A stretch of DNA of 64,000 bases from an uncultured Candidatus Rokubacteria bacterium (GCA_963708025.1 CAVPSB010000049.1:1-64000); one strand, 5' to 3'; numbered from the stretch's first letter, positions 113 through 8,916 are shown. The notes: generated from the sequence alone by a model not told the origin. Made by a program: numbers and translations.

Positions 113-695
113 TTGACACCACAGACCTGGCGGACCTTTCTCGACCACCACGTCGGGAGCCTCGTCTCCGTGGACTTCTTCACCGTGCCCACCGTGATGT
201 TCAAGGTCTTGTTCGTCTTCGTGGTCCTGGCGCACGACCGCCGACGCGTCCTCCACATCAACGTGACCGACGCCCCCACGGCGCAGTGGACGGCCCAGCA
301 GCTCGTGGAGGCGTTCCCCTGGGAGACCGCCCCACGCTACCTCCTGCGCGACCGCGATGCGGTCTACGGGGTCGCGTTCTCCAGCCGACTCCAAGCCCTG
401 GGGATCCTCGAAGTCAAGACGGCGCCTCGGTCTCCTTGGCAGAATCCCTATGTCGAACGCCTCATCGGCACCCTGCGCCGCGAGTGCCTCGATCACGTCG
501 TCGTCCTTCCACGAGACCCACTTGTGTCGCCTGCTGCGCGACTACCTCGTCTACTACCACAGTGCCCGAACACACCTTTCCCTCGACAAGGACGCCCCGG
601 AGCCCAGACCTGTGGAGCGCCGCGATCAGGGCAGGGTCGTCGAGACGCCCCTGGTCGGCGGCCTTCATCATCGCTACAGCCGGCTGGCGGCGTAA
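113..695 (+). pseudogene. Integrase-core (rve/DDE) IS transposase, 3' remnant with frameshift near 505
   Basis: QTWRTFLDHH..SVDFFTV..YLLRDRD..SPWQNPYVERLIGTLRRECLDH continues in another frame as HLCRLLRDYLVYYHSARTHLSL..GGLHHRY; N-terminal part absent. Confidence 0.85.
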
Positions 696-1229
696 GCTCC
701 GGCCTGGGGTGTGCCCGCCACGCGGAACTCGCCGGGCGGCCGGTCAGTACGGTCCGCCTGGGTCTTCCTCGGCCTTGCGTCTGAAACTCCACACGGTCCA
801 CGGTAGTGCACGCTGGGTGTCCCTCGGAACCAAGGCCCGGTGCTCCTGACGAACGGCCGCAGCCGGTCCTCCGAACACCTGGATGGGTCAAACGGAAGGG
901 ACACGCCCGCCCGCGCCCGCTCCGGTAAGCGCCAACACGCTTCGTGGCGAGCCGGCTCTCCCGGGGCCATCCCCCCCACACCTTCCCCCGTCTCGGATCG
1001 CTTTCCTAGAGGGCTCCTCGCCGCTCTCAGCGACCGTGCGAGCGGGTGTCGCGCCGTCCCGGCCGTGTATCCCGTCGGGACCGACGGGTCGCGCCGCGGG
1101 GCCCGCGGGACCCCCGTGCGAAGCGGACCAGCTCGAGAACAGGCAAAGTACGGGCAAAGTCGGCGGGATCCACCGAGTGAGGCCGGGTGACGTGCACGTG
1201 GTAACTATGGGATTTCATGGCGATCGAGC

Positions 1230-1306
1230 TGGTGCTGGTGGCGGGAGTCGAACCCGCACTGGGCCGATTTTAAGTCGGCTGCCTCTGCCAATTGGGCTAC
1301 ACCAGC
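1230..1306 (-). tRNA. tRNA-Leu(UAA), short variable arm, CCA encoded
   Basis: Reverse complement GCTGGTGTAGCCCAATTGGCAGAGGCAGCCGACTTAAAATCGGCCCAGTGCGGGTTCGACTCCCGCCACCAGCACCA folds as a cloverleaf with anticodon TAA. Confidence 0.95.
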
Positions 1307-1307
1307 A
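1266..1307. repeat. att core repeat, copy inside the intact tRNA-Leu
   Basis: GATTTTAAGTCGGCTGCCTCTGCCAATTGGGCTACACCAGCA, identical to 8567-8608. Confidence 0.95.
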
Positions 1308-1327
1308 GCCCCTTATCTTCCCGGAGG

Positions 1328-2401
1328 TTAGTCTACACGCGCGGGCGCCGTTCCCGCGATGCCCGCCGGCGCCGTCAAAGTTTTCTCGAAGTTCTGTAGC
1401 GGGTTGACGAGCCGCTCGACCGCCTGGTGGAGATGGGCGGGGGCGAGGTGGGCGTACCGCTGGACCATCGCCAGCGTCTTCCACCCGCCGAGCTCCTGGA
1501 CGGTGCGGAGATCGACGCCGGCCATCACCAGCCGGCTCGCGAAGGTATGCCGGCACCCGTGCCACGTGAAGCCGTCGAGCCGGCTGGTGTCATCCCCGGC
1601 CTCGCGGCGCTGCGCCTGCGCCAGTACGACCGCGCGGCCGAGTGCCCGGTTGACGGTGCGGTACGCGAGCCCGAAGACCGGCTCGTCGGGATCATCGGGC
1701 CGCCGGCGCCGGGACGCCACATCGACGAGCACAGAGCGGACCACCGAGTTGATCGGCACCCGGCGCCCGTAGCCGTTCTTGCTCCGCCCTACGCCGATGG
1801 AGCCGACGAGCACGTCAACGTCGCGCCAGAGGAGCGCCGCCTGCTCGGACCAGCGCAAGCCGGTATGGAGTGCCGCGGTGAAGGCGGGCCGAAACTCCGG
1901 GGGAAGGCCGTCGCGGACGGCCGACTCTTCCGGGGGCATGAGGTAGAGGATCCGGCCCCCCGGTTCCTTGCTCTTCGGGATTCCCCGGGCCGGGTTGCGC
2001 TCGACCAGGCCGAGCCGGATGGCGCGCTTGAACATCCCCGACACCCGATCCCGGTAGCGGTTCACCGTCGAGGGGGACAGCGGTGTCGGCGCCGTGCGGA
2101 GCGCCGTCAGGAACTGCTCGACGTCGGCGCTGGTGATTGAGTCGAGCGGGCGGCTCCCCCACGCGGCGACTACTCGGGCCACCTCGCCCCGCGCCGTTTT
2201 GCGGCTTCGATGCACGGTTGCCGACCACGCGAGATAGTCGGTGGCGTACGCGGCGAACGTCACGTGCTCCCGGCGCGCGTCCGCTCGAGCCGCGCGGCGC
2301 TCGACGGCCGGGCACCAGCCGGGCTCGTGGGCGCGGCCGCGCCGGTCGTGGTAGCGCTGGATCGCCTCGCTCTTGACGGGCCCGATCTTTTCCTGGTGCA
2401 C
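1328..2401 (-). CDS. int: Tyrosine recombinase / phage integrase (start uncertain; frame open to 2614)
   Basis: Catalytic motifs TGLRWSE, SKNG, HGCRHTFASRL, LGGWK, RYAH; SAM-like region STVNRY. Confidence 0.93.
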   Translation of the reverse strand: MHQEKIGPVKSEAIQRYHDRRGRAHEPGWCPAVERRAARADARREHVTFAAYATDYLAWSATVHRSRKTARGEVARVVAAWGSRPLDSITSADVEQFLTALRTAPTPLSPSTVNRYRDRVSGMFKRAIRLGLVERNPARGIPKSKEPGGRILYLMPPEESAVRDGLPPEFRPAFTAALHTGLRWSEQAALLWRDVDVLVGSIGVGRSKNGYGRRVPINSVVRSVLVDVASRRRRPDDPDEPVFGLAYRTVNRALGRAVVLAQAQRREAGDDTSRLDGFTWHGCRHTFASRLVMAGVDLRTVQELGGWKTLAMVQRYAHLAPAHLHQAVERLVNPLQNFEKTLTAPAGIAGTAPARVD

Positions 2402-2440
2402 GTGCCCCTGATCGCCGGCGAGGCACGCTGGCGCGATGTC

Positions 2441-3043
2441 GTGTCGCGCACGACGCCCGCCGAACGCCGACGCCTGCTCGGTCTCCTCGCCCCATCCCTG
2501 CTCGAGCTCGGCGAGGGGGCCCGGCGCCTCGCGGCCCGACCGGCGAACGGACCACGCCCGCCCGAGACACCGGCGGCGCTCCGACGCCGGGTGCGGGAGT
2601 CGCTCCAGTTCCACGGCGATGAGCCGATGTTCACCCTCGCGGTCGACGCGCTCGCGGGCCTCGTCCCTGACCCGGTCCGTCGCTTCGTGCTTGAGGAGAT
2701 CGCGATCGTCGCGTCAGGCTGGAGCACGCGGGGCTGGACGGCGCCACTCGGCCTCGTGCATCCGGACCGTCGCCCCCGATCGTACGTAATCGTCCTGTCA
2801 GGCATCGAGCGTGATGCCGAGGCCGTGACCCTCGTGCTTCTCCATGAAGTCGCGCACAACTGGGAGTCGTCCCCCCGCTGTGCCGTGACGCCCTTGGCGT
2901 CCGGCCGACAAGCGCTCGCCGCGCTCGCCCGGGAGCAGGCCTGGCCGGCCCTCGCCACGCGCGCCGACAGCGAGCACCGCGCGGACACGCTCGCCCTCGC
3001 CTGGCTGTGCGCGGCAGAGCCCGAGAAGCCGGCCGATGGCTGA
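2441..3043 (+). CDS. Hypothetical protein with HExxH zinc-peptidase motif (ImmA/IrrE-like?); start 2441 or 2627
   Basis: VLLHEVAHNW followed by SEHRADTLA (E..A motif). Confidence 0.6.
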   Translation: MSRTTPAERRRLLGLLAPSLLELGEGARRLAARPANGPRPPETPAALRRRVRESLQFHGDEPMFTLAVDALAGLVPDPVRRFVLEEIAIVASGWSTRGWTAPLGLVHPDRRPRSYVIVLSGIERDAEAVTLVLLHEVAHNWESSPRCAVTPLASGRQALAALAREQAWPALATRADSEHRADTLALAWLCAAEPEKPADG

Positions 3044-3129
3044 GGGGTGGGGGCTTAGGTTCTTCCGCCGCGTCCACGGAGCGGAGGGGCGGAGGCGCGC
3101 CGCCGGGGCACGCTGGTAAGGCGCCTTAG

Positions 3130-3972
3130 ATGACGACCCAGGGGCTGACCCGGCACGAGTTGTCACACCACTTGAAGATCTCGGGCTCTAGCGTCAACCG
3201 GCTCATCGCCGCCGGGCTCCGCCCGGTGGGGACCCGCGGCCCCGCCAAGCTCTACAGCCCGACCGCCGCGCGCGCCGCCCTCCGCCGAGCCGCGGCCGCC
3301 GGGCCCGGAACCGAGTACGGCGCGGCCCTGCTGTCGCTCTTCCTGGCGCAAGCCGAGGAGGCCCGCGCGCGGGAGGGGGAGCTCCGCCGCCAGCATATCC
3401 ACGAGAGCGAGTGGGTCGTCGGGCTGCGCCTCGAGCTCGCGGCCGTCCGCGAGGTCCTGGCTGAGTGGCTCACCACGGCTCCGGATCGCGTGGCGGCGAT
3501 CGCCCGGCCCGGCGGCCCCCGGGTGTTTCCGGGCGATGATCCGCGCGCCATCGGGTATGCCGTGCAAGAGCTCGTGAGCCGCCCGCTGCTCGAGGCGATC
3601 GCCGCCCGCGTCAACGCCCTCCCGCCGCCGCCCGCGCCGGCCGGGTCGTCGCCGGGTCGTCGCCGGCCGACGACGATCGCCGAGGCGCGGGCCGCGCTGC
3701 TCCGCGCCCGCGGCGCCGTCGCGCAGCTTCGCGCCGACATCAAGAGCGATCGCGCCTGGCGCCCGCGCCCGGCGGTCGAGCGGGGCCTCGGTGATGCGCG
3801 CGCCAATGCCCGCGACACGATCTGGACCGGCCTCCCCGCCACTGTCCTGCGCGGCCGGGCCGACGACCGCCGCGGCACCATGCCCAGCGTCCTCCAGGCG
3901 ATCGCCGCCGATTGCGGCGAGGCCCTCGAGGCCGCGCTCCCCCGGCGGCCCGGGGGCCGGAGGCGTCGATGA
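3130..3972 (+). CDS. Nu1/terminase small subunit-like wHTH and coiled-coil protein
   Basis: N-terminal LTRHELSHHLKISGSSVNRLIAAGL..KLYS and AQAEEARARE..LAAVREVL resemble the lambda gpNu1 architecture. Confidence 0.55.
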   Translation: MTTQGLTRHELSHHLKISGSSVNRLIAAGLRPVGTRGPAKLYSPTAARAALRRAAAAGPGTEYGAALLSLFLAQAEEARAREGELRRQHIHESEWVVGLRLELAAVREVLAEWLTTAPDRVAAIARPGGPRVFPGDDPRAIGYAVQELVSRPLLEAIAARVNALPPPPAPAGSSPGRRRPTTIAEARAALLRARGAVAQLRADIKSDRAWRPRPAVERGLGDARANARDTIWTGLPATVLRGRADDRRGTMPSVLQAIAADCGEALEAALPRRPGGRRRR

Positions 3973-4160
3973 GCGCCGCGGACTACCGGGTGGTGCTCCT
4001 CAAGCGCTTGGAGCTCCGCGTCCAGGCGGACTCCGAAAGCGAAGCGATCGCCTGGGCCGTCGCGGTCGCGGACGGTGAGGCGAGTCCGCGCGTCCGCGCG
4101 CGCGTGGCCTTCGTCGGCAAGCGCCTAGTCGTCGAGCACGTCGAGGCGCCGGCGCCGTGA
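3969..4160 (+). CDS. Small hypothetical phage-type protein
   Basis: ATGA overlap with upstream gene and GTGA overlap with downstream gene; MSAADYRVVLLKRLELRVQADSESEAI. Confidence 0.6.
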   Translation: MSAADYRVVLLKRLELRVQADSESEAIAWAVAVADGEASPRVRARVAFVGKRLVVEHVEAPAP

Positions 4161-4438
4161 GGGACAAGCGACTCGCCGACCTCCCGCTGGTGACGGTCAA
4201 CCCCGGCGACAACCTGGGGGCGGCCCTCAAGGCCCTCGATAAGAGGGTGCAACAGAGCGGGCTGCCGGCCGCCCTGGTCCGGAGCCAGATCGCCTCCCCG
4301 CGCGAGCGCCGCCGGTGGAAGCAAGCCCGGGCTCGCGCCCGAGCCGCGCGGTCGGCCCAGCGGCAGGCCGAGGCCGAGAGCGCCAAGGGGGCGTCGCGAG
4401 GACCCCTGACGGTTGACGATCGCCCCGGTCGGCCTTGA
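4157..4438 (+). CDS. Divergent ribosomal protein bS21-like protein
   Basis: PLVTVNPGDNLGAALKALDKRVQQSGLPAAL..SPRERRRWKQARARAR follows the bS21 pattern V.V....AL+..++....G+......P..+R+.K..A..R. Confidence 0.6.
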   Translation: MRDKRLADLPLVTVNPGDNLGAALKALDKRVQQSGLPAALVRSQIASPRERRRWKQARARARAARSAQRQAEAESAKGASRGPLTVDDRPGRP

Positions 4439-4917
4439 GCAAGCCGCGCCCGGATTGGCCGGGCGTTCCCGTCGGCGGGTCCCGGCCCGCCCGGCGGGGG
4501 CCGGGACGGATGTCGTTCGGGACGGGCGGCCGACGGGGCGAGCCTCAGCGGGCGCCTCGGCCGCCGGGTGTGGGGGCGCGGCGGGCGCGTCAGCGGGCCG
4601 GGAATACTGAGTGGCCAGGGCGCCGTCCGGCTCGATCCTGGAGGCGCTTGGGGCGCGCTGGCGGGATTCTAGGGCGCGCTCAGGATGCGCAGGCGGCCTT
4701 GGCCGGAGCGCCTTTCCCGGGGATTGGGGGGCATGGTAGGCTCCCGGGCTGGGGGGGGTCCTGTCGCTTTTGACCATCCTCGATTCCACCACGCTGGCCC
4801 GGGCGCTGCTCGAGTGGGCCCAATCATGAGGCTCGAGCGAAGCCGGCGCCCCAGTTTGAGCTCGCGTGAGGCGCCGGCCGAGACTGCCCCCCCGGCGGGG
4901 GCGACGGAGGGTGAGCC

Positions 4918-5256
4918 ATGCTGAGGTGTCGTGTTGGGGCGATGATGCTGCTCGCCTGGGTCTTATGGGTTCAACACGAACAACTCAGCGATAGTGCTGT
5001 GGGGCAAGGCTACCGGAGGACCTGGGCTCCCGAAACTGGTTACCCCGATGACGGCTACAGCGACTGTGTACGGGATGCTCGAACCCTCGCAAACCGTCAA
5101 GCCGAAGGAGAGCGGGGGGCGAACGTGGAATCGATTGAGGTAAAGGAACTCATCGGGAATCGGTTCAGTGTCAGCATCAAGCTGAAGAAGGGCGGAAGCA
5201 TATGGCAGCGGTACGTCTGCTTCCCGCACACGGTTAAGCCTGAGGGTGCTGAGTGA
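4918..5256 (+). CDS. Small secreted hypothetical protein
   Basis: Hydrophobic N-terminus, two Cys (SDC..YVCFP), GGAGG upstream, lower GC. Confidence 0.6.
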   Translation: MLRCRVGAMMLLAWVLWVQHEQLSDSAVGQGYRRTWAPETGYPDDGYSDCVRDARTLANRQAEGERGANVESIEVKELIGNRFSVSIKLKKGGSIWQRYVCFPHTVKPEGAE

Positions 5257-5314
5257 GCGACCTGGCCTTTCCCTAGTTGACTCTCGGCCAGGCATTTGCC
5301 GCGGGAGGTGACCC

Positions 5315-5908
5315 ATGTGGCGGTCGTACCTCGAGGCGGTCCCCGTGCTCTTCGCTCATCCCTTCGTAATCGCGGCCTTCGCAGCCCTCATGGCGTACCT
5401 CTTCGCGGAGAAGTGGCAGCGGTGGCGCCAGCGTCGAGACTTTCAGTACCGTGCAACAACCACGCTGTCCAGCGCCAGCGCCACTGTCCTCAAGGTCCTC
5501 TATGAGACGTGGGGGATGCACGACGGCGGCTATGATCGCGAGCACCACCAGGAGCTGCGACGTGAGTACCGGGTCCAGATGATGCCGCTCTTGTCCCTCG
5601 ATGCCGACTTTTTCGCGACGTTCGAAGACGAGAGCCTGCAGGCCGACCTTGGCCATTTGACCGGTGTTCTGAACGCCGCTCACAAAGAGTTGTTCAAAGC
5701 TGGTCGGCTCGGGTCCCTCGATCAGCCCCAGAAGGACCGCGCGCGAGCCATCCTGAAATGCGCGACGGCACAACGGCGCCTCATGATCGCCAAGATGAGT
5801 CGAGAGATGGAGCTCGTGCGCCCCACAGACGATCTCCTTCGGAAGCTTGAGCGACGGGCTCACGACCTCCCAGATGGTGTCACCATTCCCCCCTTAGAAG
5901 ACGCATAG
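5315..5908 (+). CDS. Membrane-anchored helical hypothetical protein
   Basis: SD GGAGGT; one N-terminal TM helix; 197 aa. Confidence 0.7.
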   Translation: MWRSYLEAVPVLFAHPFVIAAFAALMAYLFAEKWQRWRQRRDFQYRATTTLSSASATVLKVLYETWGMHDGGYDREHHQELRREYRVQMMPLLSLDADFFATFEDESLQADLGHLTGVLNAAHKELFKAGRLGSLDQPQKDRARAILKCATAQRRLMIAKMSREMELVRPTDDLLRKLERRAHDLPDGVTIPPLEDA

Positions 5909-5979
5909 AGTGGGGACAGTCGGCCCCGGGCGCCGGCCGGGCGCGATCCTGGGGGCACCGGGGCGCGCTGGGGGGGATG

Positions 5980-6675
5980 CTAGGGGCGGACGGGGCCTGC
6001 TCCCCATGCGAGCGAGGTCTCACGCGCCACGCCGGCGGGAAGCTGCGCCGCAGGAAGGTGGATCACCCCATGGGGACGCTTGATCTCCCACGCGCGCTCG
6101 AACCGGGTGCGCAACTCGACATTCACGGGATCGCGCAGCCTGGCCACATACCAGGCGAAGTGCCCGTTGACGTCGTCCAGAATCTTCTCGGGATCGAGGA
6201 ACACCGCGCTAACTTCGCCGGTCGTCATTGAAACGGACGGCGTGATCGGAGCCGCCATCGGCCTCAGGAGAATGCCAGCGCCCGTGAGGTTGTTGTGAAA
6301 GAGGCCACACCGACCCGATTCGTAGAGTTTCTTCGCCAGGTTCCTCATGACATCGGCGGCCGCTTTCCCGGCCGGCGTCCATCCGACAGCGCGAGCGCCC
6401 TCGGGGGGAAACACGTCGAGGAAACCTGCCGTGAAAAAGCGCTCGGACTTGTGACGGCTGTCCTCCCCGCTCGCGTAGATCCAATAGGTCTCGAAGTAGC
6501 CGATGGTGAGGGCCAGGGCCGCGTGGGCCGAGTGCGGCTTGTCGAGGAGGTATCGCGCCTGGGCGAAGAACCAGCCCTGCATCTGATCTTCGAAGACGTC
6601 GATCTTGTCCTCGATGGCGCCTGACGCCAGCTTGTCGGCCGTGTACTTCGGGCTGACTTGCATTACGAGGCTCAT
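5980..6675 (-). CDS. Hypothetical protein with RxxxxH (HEPN-like) motif
   Basis: Helical protein with LYESGRCGLFHN; natural amino-acid composition. Confidence 0.7.
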   Translation of the reverse strand: MSLVMQVSPKYTADKLASGAIEDKIDVFEDQMQGWFFAQARYLLDKPHSAHAALALTIGYFETYWIYASGEDSRHKSERFFTAGFLDVFPPEGARAVGWTPAGKAAADVMRNLAKKLYESGRCGLFHNNLTGAGILLRPMAAPITPSVSMTTGEVSAVFLDPEKILDDVNGHFAWYVARLRDPVNVELRTRFERAWEIKRPHGVIHLPAAQLPAGVARETSLAWGAGPVRP

Positions 6676-6739
6676 CCCTTCCGCTTCCCCCACCGCGCCC
6701 GCGCGGCCTTCCGGGCGATCGCCTGGCGTTCCTCGGGGG

Positions 6740-6979
6740 TCAAGCGCGGGTCACGACCAGGTAGTCCAGCCCGCTCCAGCTCGCCGGCGGGGGTCCGCGT
6801 CGAACCCGGCGGCGCCGCTCCTGTGGGGACGGATGCGTCACGCCGCGCCGCTCCTCAATCCGACGGTCCCAGATCACCTGGACCAGGTCGCGGGCGAACG
6901 TCGCTGCCAGGATGGTGAAGCAGTCCGCTTGGCCACGGCGCACAATCACCAGGAAACGCGGCGGGTCGCCGATGCTCAT
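6740..6979 (-). CDS. Small hypothetical protein with DRR..ERR..ERR repeats
   Basis: MSIGDPPRFLVIVRRG..VQVIWDRRIEERR..QERRR; GGAG upstream. Confidence 0.6.
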   Translation of the reverse strand: MSIGDPPRFLVIVRRGQADCFTILAATFARDLVQVIWDRRIEERRGVTHPSPQERRRRVRRGPPPASWSGLDYLVVTRA

Positions 6980-7019
6980 GCCCTCTCCGGCGTTGCGATC
7001 ACCTGTCCCCAGGCGCAAC

Positions 7020-7196
7020 TCAGCGCTTCTTCTTGGCCAGCTCCCACCGGGCCCGGGCCGCCTTCCGGGCCAGCGCGCTTCGCTCCTCGGGGGGGACGTT
7101 GGCCCAGCGGGCCGCCGCGGCCTTCTTGGCGCCTTTCGCGGCGCCCTTCTTTCCGAGCGCAACCGCGTGAGGGTTCTTCCGTCGTTTCTTGGCCAT
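7020..7196 (-). CDS. Small basic protein (KNPxAVALG..ARW type), putative nucleic-acid-binding regulator
   Basis: MAKKRRKNPHAVALGKKG..EERSALARKAARARW; extended -10 TGGTAGAAT 7 nt upstream. Confidence 0.7.
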   Translation of the reverse strand: MAKKRRKNPHAVALGKKGAAKGAKKAAAARWANVPPEERSALARKAARARWELAKKKR

Positions 7197-7203
7197 GTCC
7201 GGG

Positions 7204-7267
7204 ATTCTACCATGCATGCGACGGCGGACGCAGATGCTTGACATGCATCCGGCGCCGGATGCATGAT
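7204..7267. promoter_or_regulatory. Divergent promoters with palindromic operator(s)
   Basis: TTGACA 7238-7243 and CATGAT 7262-7267 (+); TGGTAGAAT 7204-7212 (-); perfect 24-bp palindrome 7242-7265. Confidence 0.7.
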
Positions 7268-7354
7268 GAGGCCGGAACGCAGGTGCCCCGGCGAGCGCGC
7301 TAACGCTCCCGGGGCGTGGTCCGCCACCACCAGCACCCTTGTGAGGAGACGACA

Positions 7355-7573
7355 ATGGCGAACACCCGTAGTGTACCCCGCCCCCCGAGCCCCCGGAAGC
7401 CGCTCCCGCGGCCCGACCGCGCCGCCCAGGGCGGCACGGACGCCTACCTCGCCGAGCTCGCGCGAGCCGTGGCCCAGTTGCGGGCCGTCGCGGACCGCCA
7501 CAACGACGCGATCCGGCTCCTGGAGGTCGGCCTCCAGCGGGCCGCCGCGACCCTCGAGGAGGTGACGCGATGA
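7355..7573 (+). CDS. Small coiled-coil hypothetical protein
   Basis: SD GAGGAG, ATG at 7355, ATGA coupling to the next ORF. Confidence 0.6.
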   Translation: MANTRSVPRPPSPRKPLPRPDRAAQGGTDAYLAELARAVAQLRAVADRHNDAIRLLEVGLQRAAATLEEVTR

Positions 7574-8328
7574 GCACCCCGAAGCGCCGCCCCGCAGCGA
7601 AACCCGTCATCAGGCGGCCCGACCGCGCCACCCGAGAGCCTGGCCTCCCTGGCGCGCGACCTCCAGGGCGACGTCGGCTGCGTCCGCGCGATCGCGATCA
7701 GCCTGCACGATCTGCAGTACCAGTACATGCCCTGCCGCACGGCGGAGCAGTTCGATTGGCTCCGGTCCATCCTGCTCGATCGGCTGCAGGAGGAGAGCGA
7801 CGAGCTCGCGCGGACGGCCCGGCAGCTCGTCCAGCTCGCCGGCGAGGTGGCTCAGTGAGCCCGCGCGCGGCCGCGCCCGCCCGCCCGCCGGATCCCGAGC
7901 GCCCGGCGCCCTCCGCTGACGACGTGACCCTGGCCCTGGATCGGCTGGCCGCGGGCCTCTGGCTCCTGGACGCCGTCCACTACGGGGAGTTGTCGCTCCT
8001 GTTCCGGAAGAGCGAGAAGACCGTCGGCCTGGTGGCGCGCGTGGCCGTTCCCTATGCGACCGGCCAACCTGAAGGCCTGGCTCGAGGACATGGCGCTCAA
8101 GTACTCGGCCGAGGCGCTCCACGAGAGCTACGGCGAGCTCCGCAAGCTGGTGGCCCGGCTGCAGCCGGAGGAGACGCGGGCCCCCGACGAAACTTGGGGC
8201 CACGCCCCCCCAAGTTTCAAGAAGTCAGGTGGCGCCGGGACGCGGAAGACGACCGAGCTCGAGGACCTCGAGAAGCACGGACGCGGACCTGGTGGGAGGC
8301 GCTGAAGGCCGAGAGGACCGCGCCGTAG
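7570..8328 (+). CDS. Two small helical hypothetical proteins (about 7570-7858 and 7855-8328), apparently frameshifted
   Basis: Protein-like segments switch frames (ESLASLARDLQGD..GEVAQ*; DDVTLALDRL.. to NLKAWLEDMALKY..). Confidence 0.4.
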   Translation: MSTPKRRPAAKPVIRRPDRATREPGLPGARPPGRRRLRPRDRDQPARSAVPVHALPHGGAVRLAPVHPARSAAGGERRARADGPAARPARRRGGSVSPRAAAPARPPDPERPAPSADDVTLALDRLAAGLWLLDAVHYGELSLLFRKSEKTVGLVARVAVPYATGQPEGLARGHGAQVLGRGAPRELRRAPQAGGPAAAGGDAGPRRNLGPRPPKFQEVRWRRDAEDDRARGPREARTRTWWEALKAERTAP

Positions 8329-8566
8329 GTGAGCCCTGGCCGAGCGCGGCCGGGGGGGGTGACGCCCTTGGCCGCGCCGGCTCCCCTTCCCCGGCCCCCG
8401 TTTCCCCGTCGAAGTTTCGTCGAAGTTCTACACCTCATTTGGCCTCATTCGGTGTCACTCCCGCTCGGAAGGCTCACGCTGGTATCCGGGCCGAGGTGCC
8501 CGTCAGGATTGAGCGTTTCGCACATGGAGTGAGCGGGAGTGATACGGAGCGAGAGGCGGCCGACCG

Positions 8567-8608
8567 GATTTTAAGTCGGCTGCCTCTGCCAATTGGGCTA
8601 CACCAGCA
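8567..8608 (-). repeat. att core repeat, equal to the orphan 5' half of tRNA-Leu(UAA) at the original operon position
   Basis: 42-bp identity to 1266-1307; includes D-arm and anticodon loop, no T-arm. Confidence 0.95.
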
Positions 8609-8663
8609 CGCGGCTCCCCGGAAAGACGACGGGGGACCCGCCGGCGGCGGATCCCCCGAGCGC

Positions 8664-8739
8664 TGGAGGCGGCGGGCGGATTCGAACCGCCGAGTAACGG
8701 TTTTGCAGACCGTCGCCTTAACCACTTGGCTACGCCGCC
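8664..8739 (-). tRNA. tRNA-Cys(GCA)
   Basis: GGCGGCGTAGCCAAGTGGTTAAGGCGACGGTCTGCAAAACCGT..GGTTCGAATCC..CCA. Confidence 0.97.
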
Positions 8740-8799: not shown

Positions 8800-8874
8800 T
8801 GGAGCGGGAAACGGGATTTGAACCCGCGACCCCAACCTTGGCAAGGTTGTGCTCTACCCCTGAGCTATTCCCGC
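8800..8874 (-). tRNA. tRNA-Gly(GCC)
   Basis: GCGGGAATAGCTCAGGGGTAGAGCACAACCTTGCCAAGGTTG..GTTCAAATCCC..CCA. Confidence 0.97.
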
Positions 8875-8887
8875 TCGACGACGACTG

Positions 8888-8916
8888 ATTCTAGCAAAGC
8901 CCTCCGACCGGGTCAA
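8888..8916 (-). promoter_or_regulatory. Sigma70 promoter of the Gly-Cys-Leu tRNA operon
   Basis: TTGACC-17 nt-TAGAAT just upstream of tRNA-Gly. Confidence 0.8.

Follow-up and report, generated by a model that had tools for sequence, protein, structure and literature searches.

Small integrative elements of the actinomycete type (AICEs) use the 3' end of tRNA genes, and elements with a "reverse target orientation" were reportedly described by Zhao and Williams in 2002. In Streptomyces, bldA is a known case of regulation through rare TTA codons. Table 1 of the Islander survey lists 3,760 of 3,919 islands with a 3' fragment of the target tRNA gene and 159 with a 5' fragment, in agreement with an earlier reading of this DNA made from the sequence alone (the sequence-only reading), which held that tRNA islands nearly always carry the 3' part; the same source counts 2,083 islands with an anticodon-centred attP (PMC4383910). 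The arrangement reported here, which we call mirrored, is rare and has already been described. Like the 5'-fragment islands that Islander tabulates, the element encodes a tyrosine integrase and is bounded on one side by an intact tRNA gene and on the other, upstream of that gene, by a displaced 5' fragment of it. The present case differs from those tabulated islands in its uncultured Rokubacteriales host, in its target, which comes third in a tRNA cluster and lacks a promoter of its own, and in a mirrored mode that is common to a whole integrase clade.

The nearest classical counterparts are two anticodon-loop islands of the same family, one at tRNA-Leu(CAA) (L066, genome G010) and one at tRNA-Leu(UAA) on an IMG/VR contig (L073), with integrases that are 48 to 52% identical. 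In these islands, as in our element, the 3' end of the integrase points toward the att site, the tRNA is accompanied by GTAAGT/GGAAGT boxes and tandem repeats, and identity stops at the anticodon loop. They differ in carrying the 3' part, in having integrase and tRNA convergent, and in a tRNA that retains its native promoter. pSAM2 and other AICEs, as portrayed in PMC2440964, resemble the element in being roughly 10 kb long, with a tyrosine integrase beside attP and specific tRNA genes as targets. Unlike them, the element yielded no match to a replication or transfer protein in Pfam, PHROGs or NCBIfam.

The element and its tRNA target

The window, by which we mean the whole 64,000-nucleotide stretch that was analyzed, comes from an uncultured soil or sediment bacterium in which the tRNA-Leu(UAA) gene, the sole UUA-reading leucine tRNA detected, is occupied by a 7.3-kb mobile element. 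ARAGORN and Rfam both identified an intact type I tRNA-Leu(UAA) with encoded CCA (1230 to 1306), tRNA-Cys(GCA) (8664 to 8739) and tRNA-Gly(GCC) (8800 to 8874), all on the minus strand and with Rfam scores of 61 to 70 bits. An exact 42-nt direct repeat, with no other such pair in the repeat search, lies at the two ends of the locus (1266 to 1307 and 8567 to 8608) and spans tRNA positions -1 to 41, reaching from the 5' end past the anticodon loop to include 3 nt on the 3' side of the stem. Both copies lie on the minus strand, so that the element is flanked by the intact tRNA and a co-oriented end fragment. The first copy supplies the intact tRNA with its 5' part and represents the attL core; the second is the attR core, a displaced native 5' tRNA-Leu(UAA) fragment, and no tRNA 3' half was found beyond 8567. 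These tRNA and repeat searches reproduced the geometry and coordinates of the sequence-only reading, which had recognized the repeat as the 5' half of the tRNA to just past the anticodon loop, left dead beside tRNA-Cys, with the complete tRNA 7.3 kb downstream and 21 nt past the integrase stop. The sequence enclosed by the repeats (1308 to 8566, 7,259 bp) is present in a single copy in the 8.17-Mb assembly. Outside it lies a DDE transposase remnant (113 to 784, plus strand; rve_3, E 7e-7), of which bases 122 to 711 recur on three other contigs at 82 to 86% identity; such a repeat accounts for the contig ending here.

The element encodes a tyrosine integrase of 428 amino acids (1328 to 2614, minus strand; PF00589, E 7e-25), in which R254, K279, H352, R355, W378 and Y387 are present and occupy invariant columns of the clade alignment. 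Its stop codon (1328 to 1330) is separated from tRNA position 1 by 21 nt (1307 to 1327). Paired repeats with 11-bp spacing occur at both ends of the element, on the plus strand, as a TCGAAGTTY pair at 8409 to 8428 (P arm) and a TCRAAGTTY pair at 1375 to 1394, within the integrase 3' end (P' arm). The three exact TCGAAGTTY matches in the 64-kb window all fall within these two pairs, and related elements have equivalent tandem repeats 60 to 85 nt upstream of the tRNA. The pairs are probably arm-type integrase sites.

The locus is uninterrupted in relatives, as the sequence-only reading had anticipated: a contiguous Gly-Cys-Leu(UAA) cluster was found in eight of them (L003 to L010; Rokubacteriales, Ca. 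Methylomirabilota), and at another locus (L019) the three genes follow one another in this order, with Cys and Leu 964 nt apart. A GalT-like gene past tRNA-Gly is syntenic in relatives (64 to 95% amino acid identity). Furthermore, a 360-nt metagenome contig from run X1 (depth about 4) joins 1101 to 1265 straight to 8567 to 8673, skipping exactly 7,301 nt with 42 shared letters, and with 4 substitutions and 3 indels. No circular attP joint was seen among the contigs of two metagenome runs, each with only 5% of sampled words. Given the repeat of the tRNA 5' part, the geometry of the integrase, the uninterrupted locus in relatives and the contig joining 1265 to 8567, the 7,259-bp element is, as judged from these sequence comparisons, a mirrored tRNA island.

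Our main reading, to which we assign a probability of about 80%, is that this 7.26-kb element entered tRNA-Leu(UAA) by tyrosine-integrase recombination, through an attP bearing the 5' part, and created a hybrid gene with element-borne transcription. Site-specific strand exchange would have taken place in or beside the anticodon loop of the chromosomal tRNA-Leu(UAA). Because attP would hold a copy of the tRNA 5' part and not the usual 3' part, the native 5' part would be left as a dead fragment beside tRNA-Cys (8608 to 8567), and the working gene (1306 to 1230) would combine the repeat with the native 3' part and with upstream sequence from the element. Transcription would most likely start from a -10-like block 23 nt upstream, possibly supplemented by integrase read-through, and the transcript 5' end would then be trimmed by RNase P.

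Mirrored islands in the integrase clade and in this genome

Among 30 loci with integrase homologues from 27 genomes, 12 were mirrored, 15 were classical and 3 had no tRNA. Close homologues proved likewise to be flanked by 5' tRNA fragments, a matter that the sequence-only reading had raised: the 5'-part repeat is 40 nt and exact at a Ser-UGA gene (L053), 39 nt and exact at Arg-UCU (L055), 38 nt and exact at Cys-GCA (L065), and 39 nt with 95% identity at another Leu-UAA gene (L057). The classical control at Leu-CAA (L066) has a 3'-part repeat of 55 nt. Of 12 clade loci inspected, 8 showed no 5' repeat within the available sequence. For five of these 8 that sequence was a short contig or a short stretch; at the other three (L054, L059 and L060), 20 kb each was searched and contained none. 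In all six mirrored islands that were aligned, identity ends at the 3' edge of the anticodon loop, and from this we infer that the crossover occurs at that loop. In the integrase tree, 8 of 9 mirrored integrases fall within one 11-row clade (SH-aLRT 99), where the present integrase groups with that of a Leu-UAA element in genome G020 and those of three Ser-UGA elements in a 5-row clade (98).

The genome under study itself has four mirrored junctions versus two classical ones. At its Val-UAC mirrored island the repeat takes in tRNA positions 1 to 43 and, with them, 44 nt that resemble a promoter (TTGACA, 17 nt, TAATTT). Since its target has no promoter of its own, the Leu-UAA element, unlike the Val-UAC island, cannot simply copy a native promoter. 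What appears new is an integrase clade that, by sequence, uses the mirrored mode at Leu-UAA, Ser-UGA and Arg-UCU tRNAs; also new are the preponderance of mirrored over classical junctions in this genome and the constant end of identity at the anticodon loop, together with the -10-like block, which is conserved, and the paired repeats of presumed arm type between integrase and tRNA. The mode proves to be common in this bacterial lineage. A broader proposition, which we regard as speculative and rather unlikely, is that in Rokubacteriales the mirrored mode is no curiosity but is inherited within at least two integrase lineages, which would regularly seize the 5' portion of tRNA genes and supply the signals for transcription themselves, and that elements in this way control several tRNAs. 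If it were true, mobile elements here would control transcription of Leu-UAA (the sole UUA decoder), Val-UAC, Arg-CCU and Lys-UUU, and the host would be addicted to them, since imprecise loss of an element would strip the tRNA of its promoter.

Identity of the tRNA and decoding of UUA

The tRNA-Leu(UAA) is of type I, 77 nt long with a 5-nt variable loop, unlike the type II leucine tRNAs of this genome (85 to 89 nt). Nine orthologues, 84 to 100% identical, have four different anticodon stems, all fully paired, and in sister lineages this position is occupied by a type II gene. A comparable mixture is described for Streptomyces coelicolor by Fan et al. (2019, PMC6614811), with a short-variable-loop tRNA-Leu beside type II leucine tRNAs and a single LeuRS; in that organism type I is represented by the CAA species and bldA, the UAA species, belongs to type II, whereas here UAA is type I and the phylum is another. 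In a paralogue test covering 91 TTA sites and 981 pairs, TTA aligned to L in 34%, to V in 14% and to A in 9%, compared with L frequencies of 39% for TTG, 35% for CTT and 27% for CTA, and with F at 24% for TTT as a contrast. The TTA profile matches those of TTG, CTT and CTA. Judging from these alignments and the tRNA structure, UUA still reads as leucine and the gene is a type I tRNA-Leu of ordinary function, with charging by LeuRS predicted.

Twelve codons, each A/T-rich or encoding leucine, were counted, and TTA was the least frequent, with 228 occurrences among 1,951,677 codons; 221 of the 5,137 filtered ORFs contain it. The dependency argument of the sequence-only reading presupposed a single intact Leu-TAA gene, and no second tRNA with a UAA anticodon was found in the assembly, which misses at least eight expected anticodon species, with type I and type II queries or with the anticodon-arm motif in tRNA context. 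That motif is single in 36 of 40 motif-bearing relatives (matches not individually confirmed as tRNAs), including 10-contig genomes (G010 and G011) and a 30-contig genome (G013).

Proposed transcription of the rebuilt tRNA, rival explanations and cargo

A native sigma-70-like promoter (8888 to 8916, minus strand; TTGACC, 17 nt, TAGAAT, with a TG extension) stands 13 nt upstream of tRNA-Gly, with 10 of 12 matches where shuffles expect 0.0. The TTGACC...TGCTAGAAT arrangement is kept upstream of tRNA-Gly in family relatives (G001, G002, G006 and G020), and the TGnTAnnnT motif occurs in all 13 tRNA-Gly upstream regions inspected. Between tRNA-Cys and the displaced fragment there is a 13-bp hairpin (8630 to 8658, minus strand; 11 GC) followed by TCGTCTTTCC, kept in G001, G002 and G006, with the spacer folding at -33.9 kcal/mol; it is a putative terminator-like or processing signal. 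The "operon" of the sequence-only reading finds partial support only, given this hairpin after tRNA-Cys. The separation of the tRNA from its native promoter stands, since the only nearby consensus promoter lies upstream of tRNA-Gly and the rebuilt gene is cut off from it by 7.3 kb. With the native promoter and the hairpin placed in this manner, the rebuilt tRNA is probably expressed from element sequence; the stretch itself was found in no RNA run.

The candidate -10 consists of TG and TAGACT (1330 to 1337, minus strand, with TAGACT at 1330 to 1335) and overlaps the integrase stop codon. A strict sigma-70 consensus scan returned no site in 1100 to 2000, and no promoter at the Val-UAC junction. 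At 12 of the 13 mirrored junctions and at 2 of the 15 classical ones, a block of the form GTGTATCGTAAG / TGnGATACT precedes the tRNA by 14 to 31 nt (0.027 expected per scanned interval), with a pattern defined after viewing the same sequences and with the 13 mirrored junctions representing only about 9 sequence groups. The canonical TGnTAnnnT of the native Gly promoters fits only 1 of the 13. The GGTGTATCGTAAG block also occurs behind TGGACA plus 18 nt upstream of tRNA-Ala(CGC) in the same genome. At the junctions the block overlaps a GTAAGT/GGAAGT box, which classical elements carry as well, beside the tRNA 3' end, and for that reason the block may serve recombination rather than transcription. 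The proposal that transcription is element-derived and starts at TAGACT is thus favored by the conservation of the block in related elements and disfavored by the strict scan.

It is doubtful, although the idea carries some weight, that the rebuilt tRNA lacks its own promoter and is only the tail of an integrase-tRNA co-transcript cut by RNase P, with the block acting as a site for integrase, IHF or Xis. Throughout the mirrored junctions the integrase is co-oriented and ends 13 to 218 nt upstream of the tRNA, and no terminator was called between the two; no -35 is found at 17- to 18-nt spacing, and in classical elements a promoter at the shared box, reading into the tRNA 3' end, would be senseless. 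Against co-transcription, no consensus promoter was found for the integrase gene either, decayed elements with a truncated or stop-containing integrase (L057, L058, L059 and L060) keep an intact tRNA and the block, and the Val-UAC island has a full -35/-10-like pair directly before the tRNA. That the locus is instead a chimeric contig, joined through the 42-bp repeat during assembly, is scarcely credible: the MAG has 8.18% contamination and the window begins at a contig end beside an IS remnant, but both junctions lie within one contig in integration order, the integrase and arm-type repeats are placed as an att site predicts, the same architecture recurs in independent MAGs (L053, L055, L057 and L065) and at Val-UAC here, and run X1 has a 143-nt exact match to 1302 to 1444 (junction unbridged).

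The two remaining alternatives concern the function of the gene. The rebuilt tRNA could be silent or dispensable if a second tRNA-Leu(UAA) lay in the unassembled part of the genome, which we consider highly improbable; the 49-contig assembly lacks Leu-CAG, Asn-GTT and Glu-TTC, for example, and is contaminated to the extent given above, but neither a further tRNA-Leu(UAA) match nor a second anticodon-arm motif in tRNA context was found, and relatives typically have exactly one such motif. Slightly less remote, and still very unlikely, is the suggestion of the sequence-only reading that integration and excision form a bldA-like switch on UUA decoding, or that the arrangement protects the int end from deletion. 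On this view the element would set the level of the only UUA-reading tRNA and, through it, govern host and cargo genes that contain TTA, or it would keep the tRNA hostage, so that losing the element imprecisely would be lethal. The rarity of TTA and the one UAA tRNA in the assembly speak for it, as do two TTA codons in cargo ORFs, which indeed are in frame (4963 to 4965 in ORF 4918 to 5256 and 5894 to 5896 in ORF 5315 to 5908, both on the plus strand). Because the native Leu gene has no own promoter and stands behind the hairpin, expression probably differs between the two states. However, the tRNA is intact whether the element is integrated or excised, so any effect could only be quantitative; the integrase gene has no TTA codon, and the two cargo ORFs, with only two TTA codons between them, are putative and without homology support. 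Moreover, related integrases act likewise at tRNAs that do not read rare codons (Ser-UGA, Arg-UCU, Cys-GCA and Val-UAC), so the mirrored mode is not tied to UUA. The likeness to bldA extends to a high-GC genome, very rare TTA and an apparently single cognate tRNA; regulated tRNA accumulation and TTA codons in regulators belong to bldA, and we saw no evidence of either here, nor of a switch or protection from deletion.

Besides the integrase, the element carries several cargo ORFs. No excision factor was identified among the element genes, although one ORF of 280 amino acids (3130 to 3972, plus strand; GC3 0.91) has an HTH-like N-terminus and is a possible regulator or excision factor, with a weak HTH_24 match (E 0.085) and no Pfam or PHROG family. 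The next ORF, of 93 amino acids (4157 to 4438, plus strand), is weakly similar to ribosomal protein S21 (TIGR00030, E 1.2e-4, 21.9 bits against a cut-off of 28.95; Pfam S21, E 0.11), and no homologue of it was found in related elements. It is followed by cargo of lower GC content (0.62 to 0.65; 4918 to 6693), made up of the two TTA-containing ORFs and a third on the minus strand (5980 to 6693), none with a Pfam or PHROG match. This third ORF resembles unnamed "Rv1289 domain" clusters in the ESM Atlas (score 0.95).

The element and its empty site

Three tRNA genes on the minus strand, tRNA-Gly(GCC) at 8874-8800, tRNA-Cys(GCA) at 8739-8664, and a tRNA with anticodon UAA at 1306-1230, were called by ARAGORN and scored 61 to 70 bits with the Rfam tRNA model. 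An exact 42-nt repeat (1266-1307 and 8567-8608), the sole long exact repeat found within the first 12 kb, begins one base ahead of tRNA position 1 and reaches position 41; it comprises the acceptor 5' strand, the D arm, the anticodon stem-loop, and 3 bases of the returning stem strand. Both copies lie on the same strand, and alignment found no tRNA-like sequence beyond the copy at 8567. The copies enclose an element of 7,259 bp that occurs once in the 8.17-Mb assembly and is bounded by the intact tRNA gene and by a co-oriented fragment of its 5' end. The tRNA-side end of this element is the gene of a 428-amino-acid tyrosine recombinase (2614-1328, minus strand; PF00589, E 7e-25) with conserved catalytic R, K, H, R, W, and Y residues, and its stop codon lies 21 nt ahead of the tRNA. 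ARAGORN, the repeat search, and PF00589 thus showed the sequence-only reading to be correct in its coordinates and its description of repeat, tRNA, and integrase; the interpretation that it built on them is supported in part only. We call this arrangement, with the 5' part carried and the integrase co-oriented upstream of the tRNA, mirrored, and the carriage of the 3' part classical.

The window is the start of contig 49 of a metagenome-assembled genome (MAG), G000, with 49 contigs, 99.7% completeness, and 8.2% contamination. The contig start (113-784) contains a degraded DDE transposase (rve_3). Bases 122-711 are 82 to 86% identical to copies on contigs C44, C18, and C17. Two of these copies lie close to contig ends, and this repeated remnant likely accounts for the contig starting where the window begins.

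The Gly-Cys-Leu(UAA) cluster is contiguous in eight relatives (loci L003 to L010), where tRNA-Leu adjoins tRNA-Cys as it should if the element had split them. One of these loci, L009, comes from an unpublished genome (G055), and the empty-site conclusion is independent of it. At a further locus, L019, the three genes keep their order but have a 964-nt Cys-Leu gap, and the contig of G002 stops within the Leu gene. A GalT/HIT-like gene past tRNA-Gly is syntenic in relatives at 64 to 95% amino acid identity, and nothing of 1308-8566 is present at their Gly-Cys-Leu loci. The proposed search for attP and attB junctions, carried out on two metagenome runs, was successful for attB. In a 360-nt contig of about fourfold depth from a freshwater-sediment metagenome (X1), 1101-1265 runs straight into 8567-8673; exactly 7,301 nt are left out, and the 42 shared letters lie where the two parts meet. 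This contig differs from the window by 4 substitutions and 3 indels and, judged by its sequence, is the unoccupied attB of a near relative sharing the downstream flank. Among the contigs of the two runs, each of which contained at most 5% of the sampled words, there was no circular (attP) junction and no piece bridging attL or attR with at least 31 letters per side; other candidate joints, with 20 to 29 letters on the shorter side, were ignored. No RNA runs were listed as containing window sequence. For free or viral forms, a single-protein IMG/VR scan with the integrase gave only a 27% relative, and a profile scan gave one relative, 48% identical and classical at a type II tRNA-Leu(UAA). A species-collection search with the integrase gave two close matches and a third, distant one (35%) in a Neisseria genome.

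Proposed expression of the rebuilt tRNA

The only consensus sigma-70-like site near the cluster (TTGACC, 17 nt, TAGAAT, with a TG extension) lies 13 nt upstream of tRNA-Gly. Family relatives have kept this site, and TGnTAnnnT stands ahead of tRNA-Gly at all 13 inspected loci. On its length, the 55-nt Cys-Leu spacer is too short for a separate Leu promoter, and transcription of the Leu gene in its native state probably comes by read-through from the Gly promoter. A hairpin (8630-8658; 13 bp, 11 of them GC) followed by TCGTCTTTCC separates tRNA-Cys from the displaced Leu fragment. The hairpin is kept in G001, G002, and G006 (noted at loci L002, L006, and L017), and it could attenuate native transcription into tRNA-Leu(UAA). 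The Gly-Cys-Leu operon of the sequence-only reading is therefore plausible by way of the Gly promoter, but attenuated. Some relatives with Cys-Leu spacers of 144 to 253 nt have TGCGATAYT about 20 nt ahead of the Leu gene.

Integration leaves the intact Leu gene 7.3 kb away from the Gly promoter, and the tRNA is thus parted from its probable native promoter, as was claimed. Because of this geometry, we strongly infer that the rebuilt tRNA is expressed from element sequence. Conserved element-side sequence may take over the role of the native promoter. A TG+TAGACT block lies 23 nt ahead of the rebuilt tRNA and overlaps the integrase stop codon; at the same position the Ser-UGA and Arg-UCU elements alike have GGTGTATCGTAAGT, and other related elements have TGnGATACT-type motifs. 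A relaxed -10-like pattern, written after viewing the same junctions and expected 0.027 times per window, occurs 14 to 31 nt upstream of the tRNA at 12 of 13 mirrored junctions and at 2 of 15 classical ones. The same GGTGTATCGTAAG block is also found upstream of tRNA-Ala(CGC) in G000, where it comes after TGGACA and an interval of 18 nt. Several results count against a promoter at this place: a strict sigma-70 scan found none in 1100-2000, no -35 accompanies the TG+TAGACT block, only 1 of the 13 mirrored junctions fits a canonical extended -10, and the block overlaps a GTAAGT/GGAAGT box shared by classical elements. The main alternative is that the rebuilt tRNA is transcribed by read-through from the co-oriented integrase gene, but for that gene, likewise, no consensus promoter was found. 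In the literature covered by phrase searches, no passage on element-supplied tRNA promoters was found.

Upstream of the rebuilt tRNA, the element also has two TCRAAGTTY repeats with a spacing of 11 bp (1375-1394), and a corresponding pair lies at its other end (8409-8428). The two pairs contain all 3 exact matches in the 64-kb window and fit candidate arm-type integrase sites in both attP arms.

Mirrored integration in the order and in the same genome

Genomic islands land mainly in tRNA genes. Island-finding logic takes it as a rule that the 3' end is replaced, and so do ideas on why tRNA genes are targeted. The locus is a well-documented counterexample from an uncultured phylum. That 3' fragments are the rule, as the sequence-only reading had it, agrees with Table 1 of Islander, which counts 3,760 islands with a 3' tDNA fragment versus 159 with a 5' fragment among 3,919, and 2,083 islands with an anticodon-centered attP (PMC4383910). 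A review, citing Zhao and Williams (2002), describes 5'-distal recombination as "considerably less frequent" (PMC6563490). The window locus has the defining features of this recognized minority kind. What is new is that mirrored integration is common in one lineage and one integrase clade, that the target gene lies inside a tRNA cluster and is without a promoter of its own, and that a conserved element-side sequence may stand in for the native promoter.

The integrase was used to query 183 genomes of the order, and all 30 loci returned were classified. The integrase is co-oriented with the tRNA and directly upstream of it at 12 loci, faces the tRNA 3' end at 15, and has no tRNA at 3. When longer flanks were taken, the expectation that integrase homologs would also be flanked by 5' tRNA fragments proved true at 4 of the 12 mirrored loci of this clade, the window (42 nt) included. 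The others are Ser-UGA in G106 (40 nt exact, 10.5 kb away), Arg-UCU in G051 (39 nt exact, 7.5 kb), and Leu-UAA in G020 (39 nt at 95%, 4.06 kb, with a decayed integrase), the last lying between Cys and Leu as in the window. A second integrase follows the G106 fragment, which therefore belongs to a tandem array. No displaced 5' part was found at the other 8 loci, five of them on short contigs or fetched stretches and three with 20 kb. In all 6 mirrored cases aligned, identity between intact gene and fragment stops at the 3' edge of the anticodon loop, which places strand exchange at the anticodon arm. The G010 integrase, 50% identical, is classical, with a 55-nt 3'-part repeat of tRNA-Leu(CAA).

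A family relative, G001, has a distant integrase (32% identity) mirrored in tRNA-Cys of the same Gly-Cys-Leu cluster (locus L065, contig C86, 2958-3033 and 15265-15302), which is split one gene earlier than in the window; the island is 12.2 kb long, and its exact 38-nt 5' fragment adjoins tRNA-Gly. An integrase tree (quick search, midpoint root) was built from 26 HSP-derived sequences with at least 230 aligned residues, leaving out the shorter fragments L046, L047, L058 to L061, and L064. One 11-row clade of this tree (SH-aLRT 99) takes in 8 of the 9 mirrored rows, and the window element groups with the G020 Leu-UAA element and three Ser-UGA elements (98). The Cys-element integrase lies elsewhere in the tree, so the mirrored state arose at least twice. 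At locus L056 (G079, C22, 4697-6919), a single tRNA-Arg(UCU) lies between two integrases, classical at its 3' end and mirrored at its 5' end.

G000 itself has 23 PF00589 matches, and 6 of them face a tRNA no more than 600 nt away. The mirrored ones number four (Leu-UAA, Val-UAC, Arg-CCU, and Lys-UUU) and the classical ones two (Asp-GUC and the opposite side of the same tRNA-Lys). This local prevalence of 4 in 6 compares with about 4% in Islander; if it holds, island finders and tRNA annotation for lineages of this sort must expect 5' fragments and element-driven tRNA genes. The locus is of value mainly as a tractable case. It brings together an integrase family found in both orientations, a tRNA that can be compared between its occupied and empty states, and a target without a promoter of its own, which jointly offer a direct route to how mirrored elements keep an essential rare-codon tRNA expressed.

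The mirrored Val-UAC island of G000 spans about 25.2 kb (C18, 35299-35385 and 59473-60659; loci L070 and L071), and its integrase ends 13 nt ahead of the tRNA. Its 87-nt repeat, 96.6% identical to the copy 25.2 kb upstream, consists of 44 nt of upstream sequence (TTGACA, 17 nt, TAATTT) and tRNA positions 1 to 43; by its sequence, this island brings a copy of a promoter-like region along with the tRNA 5' half. The strict scan does not call the site because its second hexamer matches at only 3 of 6 positions. The same tRNA-Val also has a classical 3' fragment, 11.6 kb downstream of it. Integrase genes or fragments stand co-oriented and directly upstream of tRNA-Arg(CCU) (C44, 6698-7642) and tRNA-Lys(UUU) (C15, 380852-381927), and an Arg-CCU 5' fragment is on a separate contig (C19, 340741-340778).

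An exact 28-nt copy of the tRNA-Leu(UAA) 3' end, comprising T arm, acceptor strand, and CCA, lies downstream of msrB/msrA (C10, 41168-41195; locus L069, 10169-10196). Together with the bases ahead of it, the copy makes up a small acceptor/T-arm-like hairpin scoring 28 bits, below threshold, with the Rfam tmRNA model. The copy may be a relic of an old 3'-side island. Another idea is that it marks a second, classical island lying past the contig start, but its neighbors are ordinary genes (msrB, msrA, and a response regulator), with no integrase beside it. Among the 50 tRNAs that ARAGORN called in G000, Leu-CAG, Asn-GTT, Ser-GGA/TGA, Thr-CGT, Val-CAC, Glu-TTC, and Arg-ACG are all absent. The assembly of this MAG seems to be incomplete at tRNA loci, and a pile-up of islands and repeats there may be the cause.

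The tRNA, codon UUA, and cargo

The tRNA-Leu(UAA) is 77 nt long with a 5-nt variable loop, and the other Leu tRNAs of G000 measure 85 to 89 nt. This type I form (75 to 77 nt, 5-nt variable loop) was seen in G000 and eight relatives from two families, in a comparison of the window gene (1230-1306) with loci L002 to L010, L019, and L057 that covered both types. The nine orthologs are 84 to 100% identical, and their four differing anticodon stems are all fully paired. The same Gly-Cys-X slot is taken by a type II tRNA-Leu(UAA) of 87 to 89 nt in G020, G023, and G026; the two forms have therefore been exchanged in place. The situation resembles that in Streptomyces coelicolor, for which a short-arm tRNA-Leu and one LeuRS charging both types are documented (PMC6614811).

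Residues aligned to 91 TTA sites across 981 paralog pairs in G000, with TTA masked in queries, were L 34%, V 14%, A 9%, I 7%, and F 6%. This profile is like those of TTG (L 39%), CTT (L 35%), and CTA (L 27%) and unlike that of TTT (F 24%). UUA reads as Leu in G000. Reassignment of UUA, considered for a class I tRNA with a Leu anticodon, was rejected on this result and on the documented type I tRNA-Leu (PMC6614811). TTA is rare, with 228 of 1,951,677 codons in 221 of the 5,137 ORFs that passed a GC3 filter, which itself works against TTA-rich genes. The G000 assembly, from which at least 8 expected anticodons are also missing, has no second UAA tRNA, as the dependency argument of the sequence-only reading requires, as far as this assembly goes. 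The anticodon-arm motif occurs in 40 of 61 genomes and exactly once in 36 of those 40, counted as motif matches and not as individually confirmed tRNAs. Likeness to bldA is limited to codon rarity and the single tRNA copy, and the suggested UUA-specific, bldA-like switch is disfavored because the same integrases mirror-integrate at ordinary tRNAs.

The element carries about nine plausible cargo ORFs. Pfam, PHROGs, and NCBIfam gave no family above threshold for 9 to 10 ORFs, tblastx against related elements gave weak, inconsistent matches only, and one ESM Atlas look-up led to unnamed clusters. A 280-amino-acid protein has a helix-turn-helix-like N terminus. A 93-amino-acid ORF (4157-4438, plus strand) has a full-length, sub-threshold S21 match (TIGR00030, E 1.2e-4, 21.9 bits versus a cutoff of 28.95); no homologs of it were found in related elements or the rest of G000, and in the PDB it matched L9 at E 0.2. 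TTA codons are absent from the integrase gene. A lower-GC block at 4900-6700 (GC 0.62 to 0.65) contains three ORFs, two of which hold, in frame, both of the TTA codons that had been pointed out in the cargo.
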